A DNA stretch of 7,330 nt from a virus (IMGVR_UViG_2585427734_000003:1-7330); one strand, 5' to 3'. Counted from the stretch's first letter, positions 13 to 425 are shown. Program-made: numbers and translations. The notes: generated by a model not told the origin, from the letters alone.

Positions 13-381
13 AATGCGCATTTACCCGAAAAGAAGATTTTTAAGCTGCCGGATACCAGGAAAAAAAAACCACCACAGTTAACAAAGCCCCGTCACCGGC
101 TTTTAGATTCTGTCATGCGCGATGAAACAATCAATTCCATCAACAAGCATCAAAGCCGACTGAACGACTCACGTCTTGCGCCGTTCGTCTCGATGACTGC
201 CATGAAAACCCGGCTTTGCAGGGGGCGCGTTGCGCTGTTCCGCGCACTATGAAATCTCTCCCTGGTATCGGCGGACAACCAACGAAGCAACATGAAACCT
301 CATCATGCCGCCTTCCATGCCTGACGGCATAAAAACAGATCTTATCGATAATCAAATAATGCCATGAACCAAGATTCACCT

Positions 382-421
382 TCTGGCCGTTCTCCTCGCA
401 AAGCTGCGGGGATCGGCCAGA
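382..421. repeat. Long imperfect hairpin immediately downstream of the gene IV stop; candidate gene IV terminator or packaging-signal-like hairpin
   Basis: TCTGGCCG (382-389) pairs with CGGCCAGA (414-421). An inner stem CCTCGCA / TGCGGGG surrounds an AAGC loop. It is GC-rich and is followed on the plus strand by the T-rich ATTTTCATCTT. The position matches the start of the Ff intergenic region. Confidence 0.4.
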
Positions 422-425
422 ATTT

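Follow-up and report, generated by a model that had tools for sequence, protein, structure and literature searches.

Positions 22–425 of IMGVR_UViG_2585427734_000003:1-7330, a 7,330-nucleotide stretch of DNA that we call the window throughout, are best explained as the non-coding intergenic arm of an integrating filamentous phage (inovirus), acting in cis on the packaged strand; we put the probability of this reading as a whole at about 0.45. The packaged (+) strand is the minus strand of the window, and on it 22–425 follows gene IV, the last gene of the phage operon. Read along that strand, a hairpin at 434–369 would serve as the packaging signal, as in Ff phages and IKe; a conserved module at 340–107 would be the minus-strand origin, where host enzymes would prime the complementary strand on incoming single-stranded DNA (ssDNA); a short spacer would follow at 106–13; and last would come the XerC arm of the attP hairpin, with host XerCD integrating the single-stranded genome at dif. 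Related loci are given here as L002, L003 and so on, with L005, L012 and L030 forming one clade with the window.

A GC-rich region with no conserved reading frame

The G+C content is 0.493 in 22–425 and 0.521 in 107–340, against 0.348 in the phage genes (426–6462), and the region holds no conserved open reading frame (ORF), which bears out an earlier sequence-only reading that saw here a GC-rich non-coding segment beside AT-richer genes. The sole sizeable ORF, 4–252, has 82 codons and is annotated by RefSeq as a 'hypothetical protein' (WP_042634791.1) in all three copies of the prophage described below; it is open in the window, L012 and L030, as would be expected of a small phage accessory protein. 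However, the L012 and L030 frames diverge from that of the window after ~40 residues, in DNA that is 92–97% identical, and in L005, L010 and L011 the frame ends after 11–27 aa. Moreover, its start ATG falls inside the XerC-binding arm and belongs to it, single-base indels are present within the conserved block, where no reading frame is open across all 17 homologues, and neither this ORF nor any other in or overlapping the region matched Pfam, PHROGs or NCBIfam. ORF 4–252 is thus likely to be an annotation artefact, and we give next to no credence to the idea that the region encodes an 82-aa protein. As for a small hydrophobic toxin ORF of a type I toxin–antitoxin system, none was found, the candidate peptides not being hydrophobic and no Rfam toxin–antitoxin family matching. 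A scan for tRNA and tmRNA gave no match, and one for terminators gave a weak site only.

Derivation from host DNA or plasmid backbone was considered and is ruled out, because the conserved module is carried only in prophage contexts or prophage remnants: the region repeats with the prophage unit and elsewhere matches only inovirus prophages or what is left of them.

A hairpin across the gene IV stop codon

When compared with shuffled sequence, the 404 nt of the region folded with −70.7 kcal/mol on the minus strand (z = −3.9) and with z = −3.2 on the plus strand. Analysis in 120-nt windows showed the excess stability to stem from an imperfect 66-nt hairpin on the minus strand, 369–434, whose 27-nt inverted-repeat arms span the gene IV stop codon (426–428) and which by itself folds as DNA with −21.6 kcal/mol (z = −4.8). 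A sliding-window scan of the whole genome gave z = −10 to −12 at attP, about −5 at 6700–6840, −4.4 at 321–440 and about 0 for the block 81–320. The expectation of stable ssDNA structure beyond that of shuffles was therefore borne out for the 404 nt as a whole and for the 369–434 hairpin, but not for the block 107–340. All three hairpins listed in the sequence-only reading exist, namely 382–421, 305–330 (ATGCCG..CGGCAT) and 84–103 (AAAGCC..GGCTTT). The first of them, with the stem TTCTGGCCG/CGGCCAGAA plus an inner stem, is the inner part of the hairpin that extends to 369–434, while in 305–330 covariation backs a smaller hairpin, 317–330 (ATGCC-TGAC-GGCAT).

The 369–434 hairpin is maintained in the relatives in different ways. 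L012 carries a compensatory change in the stem (GGCC to GTCC with GGCC to GGAC, replacing a G-C by a T-A pair), L030 has a different outer stem around the unchanged core, and L005 has a comparable hairpin at the equivalent position. In position and shape it matches hairpin A of M13, the morphogenetic signal of IKe, which the IKe record annotates as a stem-loop at 6141–6196 overlapping the gene IV stop (6151), and the corresponding hairpin of If1. On these grounds 369–434 is most likely the morphogenetic (packaging) signal. The proposal that the region carries such a signal thereby gains a specific candidate, a long hairpin across the gene IV stop built as in IKe, M13 and If1. On the plus-strand side the stem is directly followed by TTTT, and the hairpin may also act as a terminator for transcription antisense to the phage genes, into gene IV.

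A conserved module shared by otherwise different inoviruses

The module itself, a conserved GC-rich non-coding element of ~230 nt on the minus strand (107–340), has 29 distinct homologues. These occur in 67 of 5,426 complete Escherichia coli genomes, in up to 11 places per genome, in 11 of 72,556 plasmids, where they lie beside inovirus remnants, and among viral and metagenome contigs. Genome contigs were also scanned with a 16-base pattern; none of the fetched loci fit the module profile, and the pattern matches, mostly in unrelated and largely high-G+C lineages, look like chance. No description of a 230-nt module of this kind was found in the literature searched.

Orientation relative to the phage genes is the same in all homologues, and in most phages the module directly follows the last gene, 0–18 nt from its stop codon, and lies between that gene and the XerC arm. 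Its G+C content is 51–60%, compared with 35–50% in the neighbouring genes (eight phages), and it consists of invariant blocks with variable linkers between them. In L030 the module is 97% identical to that of the window, and the flanks are 69% identical. Most phages with the same attP (about 40) are without it, and the module is thus a cassette that can be separated from Xer recombination.

Two further contexts illustrate this separability. The chromosome of E. coli JNE112863 carries tandem mini-units of 3,674 bp (L010 4400–10209) that adjoin a full inovirus prophage; each holds a II/X-family Rep, an ssDNA-binding protein, two small ORFs, the module, a terminator and attP, and structural genes are absent. 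The mini-units resemble satellites of the RS1 kind belonging to a filamentous phage of E. coli. In the L006-type phage, the module is present together with an unrelated Rep; this phage is not integrated at dif and has no dif-like site. L006 (8250–9210, from E. coli 2017.06.05CC; also L045, L049 and L230) is an inovirus that encodes a large 'replication endonuclease' and carries traX. It has three ~340-nt tandem repeats, each starting with the first 50–90 nt of the module (the CATCA-repeat part), and the full module follows the last repeat only; the small ORFs annotated over these repeats are probably spurious. On plasmids, the IncF plasmid CP099215.1 (L003 2995–3136 and 3423–3646) and pUTAK-3 (L007) carry rearranged fragments of module and attP hairpin, next to transposases as well as a truncated secretin gene; they are what is left of inovirus insertions in decay, not plasmid backbone.

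Helices of the module and evidence on its strand

Three helices and one sequence motif stand out within the module. P1, the hairpin at 317–330 already mentioned (minus strand), is the first module element on the packaged strand and occurs with at least five different fully complementary stems, among them ATGCC/GGCAT, ATGTCC/GGACAT, ATGCCC/GGGCAT and ATGCCGC/GCGGCAT. P2 (270–312, minus strand) pairs GGCGG (270–274) with CCGCC (308–312) around an invariant ATGAAAC, and is replaced by the compensatory GGCCG/CGGCC in five sequences (L006, L023, L248, L238 and L246). P5 (166–191, minus strand), which on the packaged strand reads GAC-GA-ACG-G-C-GCAA-G-A-CGT-GA-GTC, has tandem G.A mismatches and a GNRA-like loop and is near-invariant, with 98% of cells paired. 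At one position its G.A is swapped to A.G with a 10:5 split, and it contains G.T wobbles that would read as C.A mismatches on the opposite strand; the swap and the wobbles favour the packaged-strand sense. For 13 of 15 homologues, the packaged strand also has the lower fold energy of the two. Taken together, these asymmetries weakly favour the packaged-strand sense of the module. The motif, at 130–152 on the plus strand, is A/T-rich and conserved, with ATCAA/CATCAA three times at ~9-nt spacing (TTGATG repeats on the packaged strand), and forms invariant columns in alignments A1 and A2; this CATCAA part is what is triplicated in the L006-type phage.

These helices bear on whether the module does anything. 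It might be a functionless GC-rich relic, a pseudogene fragment or hitch-hiking DNA spread by recombination beside the attP hot spot, and its G+C content unlike that of the phage genes in every lineage, its mosaic distribution and the rearranged fragments on plasmids would all agree with that. However, invariant blocks persist across lineages with an overall identity of only 58–70%, compensatory changes occur in the stems of P1 and P2, the module is kept in minimal satellites, and its orientation and position are fixed. We consider a relic quite unlikely.

The spacer and its repeated words

Between module and attP, the spacer (13–106, minus strand) contains the A9/T9 tract at 61–69 that had been pointed out before, the 84–103 hairpin and the word CCGGATACCAGG at 50–61; it is conserved only in the window clade and folds with z about 0. 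CCGGATACCAGG is complementary to CCTGGTATC-GG (262–272), ~200 nt off, and minimum-energy folds use this pairing, which is conserved in the window clade only. A change in L005 makes it G.T on the plus strand and a C.A mismatch on the packaged strand, in opposition to the other strand hints.

The repeated words noted in the sequence-only reading are also present. GCGCACTA occurs at 6–13 and 242–249, as reported, with a third copy at 3296–3303, and ATGCGC occurs three times, at 115–120 as given and at 4–9 and 14–19, where the reported positions were off by one. The ATGCGC and GCGCACTA words at 4–19 are there because they form part of the attP XerC arm; what had been listed at 5–20 as mere repeats is in fact the XerC-binding arm of an attP that wraps around the window ends. 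The 242–249 copy of GCGCACTA lies in a variable linker and is not conserved. We considered the GCGCACTA repeat as a signal and rejected it, as it is not conserved in the relatives, and take it to reflect chance or a weak resemblance to the XerC arm.

A putative plus-strand origin outside the arm

The sole DNA that the window has in common with any of 50,697 phage records is 6743–6792. It matches part of the annotated major intergenic region of If1 at 96% identity and in the same polarity; the Rep of the window is 73.6% identical to that of If1. The segment is a candidate plus-strand origin on the minus strand with two hairpins (fold z = −4.8), which on the packaged strand read GTTCGGG-GTTCAGTGACA-CCCGAAC (6767–6791), then TTTA, then CCGTGG-TTTC-CCACGG (6747–6762). 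At its origin M13 carries AGTCCAC-GTTCTTTAATA-GTGGACT followed by TTGTTCCA-aac-TGGAACAA; in Ff phages these are hairpins D and E, and nicking takes place in the D loop. Each of the two phages thus shows a 7-bp stem closed by an 11-nt loop whose first bases are GTTC, followed by another hairpin, and by this analogy we infer a candidate nick site in the loop at about 6774–6784. The gene II nick site and plus-strand origin had been expected within 22–425; instead, the hairpins that resemble those of If1 and M13 D/E sit ~900 bases away.

The If1 major intergenic region, like the window, has a long hairpin directly after gene IV. It differs in having neither a dif-like attP nor the 230-nt module, and its copy of the shared origin segment is located ~230 nt past gene IV, inside one continuous 1.2-kb intergenic region. 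In the window, 6743–6792 sits between two small ORFs in reverse orientation, and the upstream part of one of them (6749–7246) overlaps it; that ORF probably starts at the ATG at 6846.

An attP site of the CTXphi type across the window ends

A scan for dif arms, using the E. coli dif sequence from PMC2731167, found two dif-like sites in opposite orientation, flanking a GC hairpin. Site B (minus strand) is split by the window ends: its first part (7310–7330) is the XerD-like arm TTTCAACATAA (7310–7320) with the spacer CGTGTAACAC (7321–7330), and its second (1–12) is the last base of the spacer (1) with the XerC arm TTATGCGCACT (2–12; reverse complement AGTGCGCATAA). The XerD arm is near-perfect, the spacer to the XerC arm is 11 nt, and the XerC arm has one mismatch to that of E. 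coli dif. The second site, A, reads AGTTCGCATAA-TGACG-TTATGTGTAAA (7249–7275, with a 5-nt spacer) and is inverted relative to B; together with the GC hairpin (7278–7308) it takes up 7249–7309, again on the minus strand. With 7249–7330 joined to 1–12, sites A and B would form on the packaged strand a 94-nt forked hairpin of −35.5 kcal/mol (z = −12.3), in whose central region 6 nt bulge out; self-complementarity is 75% over 107 nt. Both attP arms covary in L012. About 30 distinct attP variants were found in enterobacterial inovirus contigs among the viral contigs; the long spacer is variable, and all variants have TGT after the XerC arm (ACA on the other strand), as in dif. Both prophage junctions place the crossover exactly at the border between XerC arm and central region; the central region of the host stays attached to the XerD arm of the host, which is what an exchange catalysed only by XerC would produce.

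In CTXphi, attP1 has a 12-bp and attP2 a 5–7-bp spacer, neither can be used as duplex, and recombination acts on the folded (+) strand; among the CTX-type elements, which integrate through host Xer recombinases, YpfPhi and CUS-1Phi are enterobacterial relatives (PMC4246890; PMC4266046). The attP at the window edges shares every sequence-level feature of this type: inverted dif-like sites with spacers of 11 and 5 nt, compared with 12 and 5–7 bp in CTXphi (PMC4246890), a forked (+)-strand hairpin, dif-identical three bases beside the XerC arm, and reverse-oriented accessory genes beside attP, as in CTXphi ig-1/attP. The two phages differ in that the structural genes here belong to another lineage and the Rep is If1-like, in that the CTXphi sites are ~90 bp apart whereas a 31-nt GC hairpin separates them here, and in that CTXphi has cargo genes such as ctxAB before attP, where the phage studied here has a conserved non-coding module between its last structural gene and attP.

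Another possibility is that the module serves as a duplex DNA platform to which proteins of the host or the phage bind, for example as Xer accessory sequences like cer and psi for the adjacent attP or in the control of lysogeny. In dif-integrated phages its position is without exception on that side of the dif-like site where the XerC arm is, its conservation is mostly of primary sequence, and it contains the repeated CATCAA motifs. Accessory sequences of the cer/psi kind span ~180 bp, lie at a fixed distance from the XerC arm and always accompany the core site. The module, by contrast, lies anywhere between about 40 and about 560 nt from the XerC arm, it is missing from ~40 phages that have the same attP, and L006-type phages have the module and no dif-like site; the Xer accessory-sequence idea is accordingly ruled out by the variable spacing and the separation of module and attP. 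For a purely double-stranded binding site in general, the strict strand orientation would be unexpected, and a sigma-70 promoter scan of 1–600 gave no promoter-like site. We therefore judge a platform of any sort highly unlikely.

Minus-strand origin or another conserved element

Besides attP in the present case, an inovirus requires a packaging signal and an origin for each of the minus and plus strands. Once attP, the plus-strand origin, the divergent promoter region (see below) and the packaging hairpin are assigned, the module and the spacer are left for the minus-strand origin. By this elimination, by the order of elements in Ff and IKe and by the weak strand asymmetry, we tentatively favour the module as that origin. 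The minus origin relies on host enzymes and is therefore expected to be exchangeable among the phages of one host and better conserved than genes. The intergenic regions of IKe and M13 bear this out, their similarity being confined to the minus origin (80% over 126 nt) and the plus origin. The retention of the module in satellites, its strand-specific orientation and its independence from the type of Rep would fit a minus origin.

Several observations weigh against this assignment. Compared with the IKe and M13 intergenic regions, the module has no similarity to the Ff/IKe minus origin, and a 'distant' search of 1–460 against the 50,697 phage records gave no match. The fold of 107–340 does not surpass shuffles of the same composition in stability (z = −1.5 to +0.6), whereas in the same test the IKe minus origin gave z = −3.9 to −4.8 and that of M13 gave −2.5. 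In the tested core, 96% of cells pair and only 1 of 24 pairs shows a two-sided change; the conservation of the module is mainly that of primary sequence, and most of its helices never vary. Moreover, in phages of the L011 and L010 types a 250-nt stretch with stronger structure (z down to −4.6) is situated between module and dif, and this stretch could be their real origin. Finally, L010 has a canonical intrinsic terminator with a 14-bp stem on the phage-sense strand ~155 nt past the module, which places the module inside a 3′ untranslated region (UTR) there and makes a role as RNA equally compatible.

Indeed, an RNA element of the 3′ UTR is the main rival to a minus-strand origin. The module would then be the conserved 3′ UTR of the operon, with a stability or processing element or a 3′-UTR-derived regulatory RNA that ends at a downstream terminator. 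In its favour are the position of the module directly after the last gene in most phages, a constant orientation with respect to transcription, the L010 terminator downstream, and conserved blocks with variable hairpins, a layout typical of functional RNAs; G.U-type variation would be equally consistent. However, Rfam (15) returned noise only, far below threshold, for the whole window and, with permissive settings, for 1–460 and the L011 homologue, and RNAalifold gave a poor consensus on the module alignment, with a covariation term of −0.19. Added to this sparse covariation and shuffle-like fold stability are a window with no clear phage-sense terminator after the module and, in the window clade, a large hairpin between gene IV and the module. 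All in all, we find an RNA function unlikely.

A broader alternative is that the module represents an undescribed class of cis-element that would pass as a cassette between Xer-dependent inoviruses of enterobacteria, and to and from their miniature satellites, independently of the Rep/origin and attP modules; it would be either an origin of a new kind for the complementary strand or a regulatory DNA or RNA specific to one strand. As regards primase- or PriA-dependent sites of the G4 or phiX174 type, blastn against the phage records gave no match for 1–460. The broader alternative of an undescribed class seems to us doubtful. Our preferred reading remains that the module is the minus-strand origin of an intergenic arm acting on the packaged strand.

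The prophage unit at dif and its other features

The window is 100% identical to the chromosome of E. coli 300709, where it corresponds to one exact 7,330-bp unit of three perfect prophage copies arranged head to tail (window 1–7330; L002 12001–24460; L004 1–9948). The array is flanked by the ydeT/helix-turn-helix-pseudogene side and by hipA, that is, the dif locus. On this strand, its left junction, ATTTAACATAA-TATACA-TTATGCGCACt, is an intact dif (attL), and its right junction (attR), TTTTCAACATAA-CGTGTAACACA-TTATGCGCACC, is a hybrid site. Tandem arrays at dif with an intact dif on one side are likewise found in CTX-type phages, whose DNA is made by rolling-circle replication from prophage arrays (PMC4246890), and the tandem copies here fit such a life style. 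Inoviruses that integrate at dif in E. coli have been described before, among them CUS-1 and YpfPhi (PMC4266046) and the UPphi phages (PMC7307601).

Every large minus-strand ORF is an inovirus gene. In the order of packaged-strand reading, these encode a gpII-type Rep (5278–6462, with a RefSeq start at 6402 rather than 6462), an ssDNA-binding protein (4992–5288), the major coat protein (4514–4744), a gIII-like protein (2958–4463), a DUF2523 protein in the position of gVI (2649–2942), Zot/gpI (1613–2656) and the gene IV secretin, gpIV (426–1616; Pfam Secretin, E = 2e-24). A local G+C peak of 0.49 at 3100–3300 within the gIII-like gene, where the third copy of GCGCACTA sits, probably reflects a Gly/Ser-rich linker. 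Two small ORFs lie on the plus strand (6493–6726 and 6749/6846–7246). The divergent region between Rep and the first of these (6403–6522; ORF 6493/6523–6726) holds repeated ATGCAT words and is probably a promoter/operator region.

Comparison with Ff phages and significance

As in Ff and IKe, the region is non-coding, richer in G+C than the genes and located after gene IV on the packaged strand, and the Ff/IKe order of a hairpin at the gene IV stop, further cis elements, and a nick-site hairpin with a second hairpin resembles that of the window. Here, however, the plus-strand origin is set apart by the attP hairpin together with a gene in reverse orientation, and the middle element has no sequence in common with the minus origin of those phages and is without its fold stability. 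When hairpin order is set against M13 and IKe, the hairpin at the gene IV stop finds its match, whereas homologues of hairpins B and C, which make up the minus origin, do not appear. The sequence-only reading, which took the region for an Ff-like origin and packaging region, was thus right about a non-coding segment after gene IV with a hairpin at the stop; the plus-strand origin lies elsewhere, and no minus origin of the Ff/IKe type is detectable. The region resembles the first part of an Ff/IKe intergenic region but lacks two defining features of that family, a plus origin inside it and a homologous minus origin. It is best filed as an addition to known kinds, plus one conserved element that matches no Rfam family or deposited phage record.

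Filamentous prophages sited at dif have effects on both virulence and physiology in E. coli, Yersinia and Vibrio. To our knowledge, the cis signals of inoviruses (for packaging, priming, nicking and integration) are mostly unmapped beyond Ff and CTXphi. For one lineage, the present analysis provides a testable map that splits a packaging-type hairpin, a conserved module and a plus-strand origin, which the first reading had merged, and it shows that a CTXphi-style single-strand attP hairpin is widespread among enterobacterial inoviruses. Were the module not a new host-primed origin, the result would be an ordinary one; if it is, it would be useful for phagemid design and for spotting inovirus satellites.

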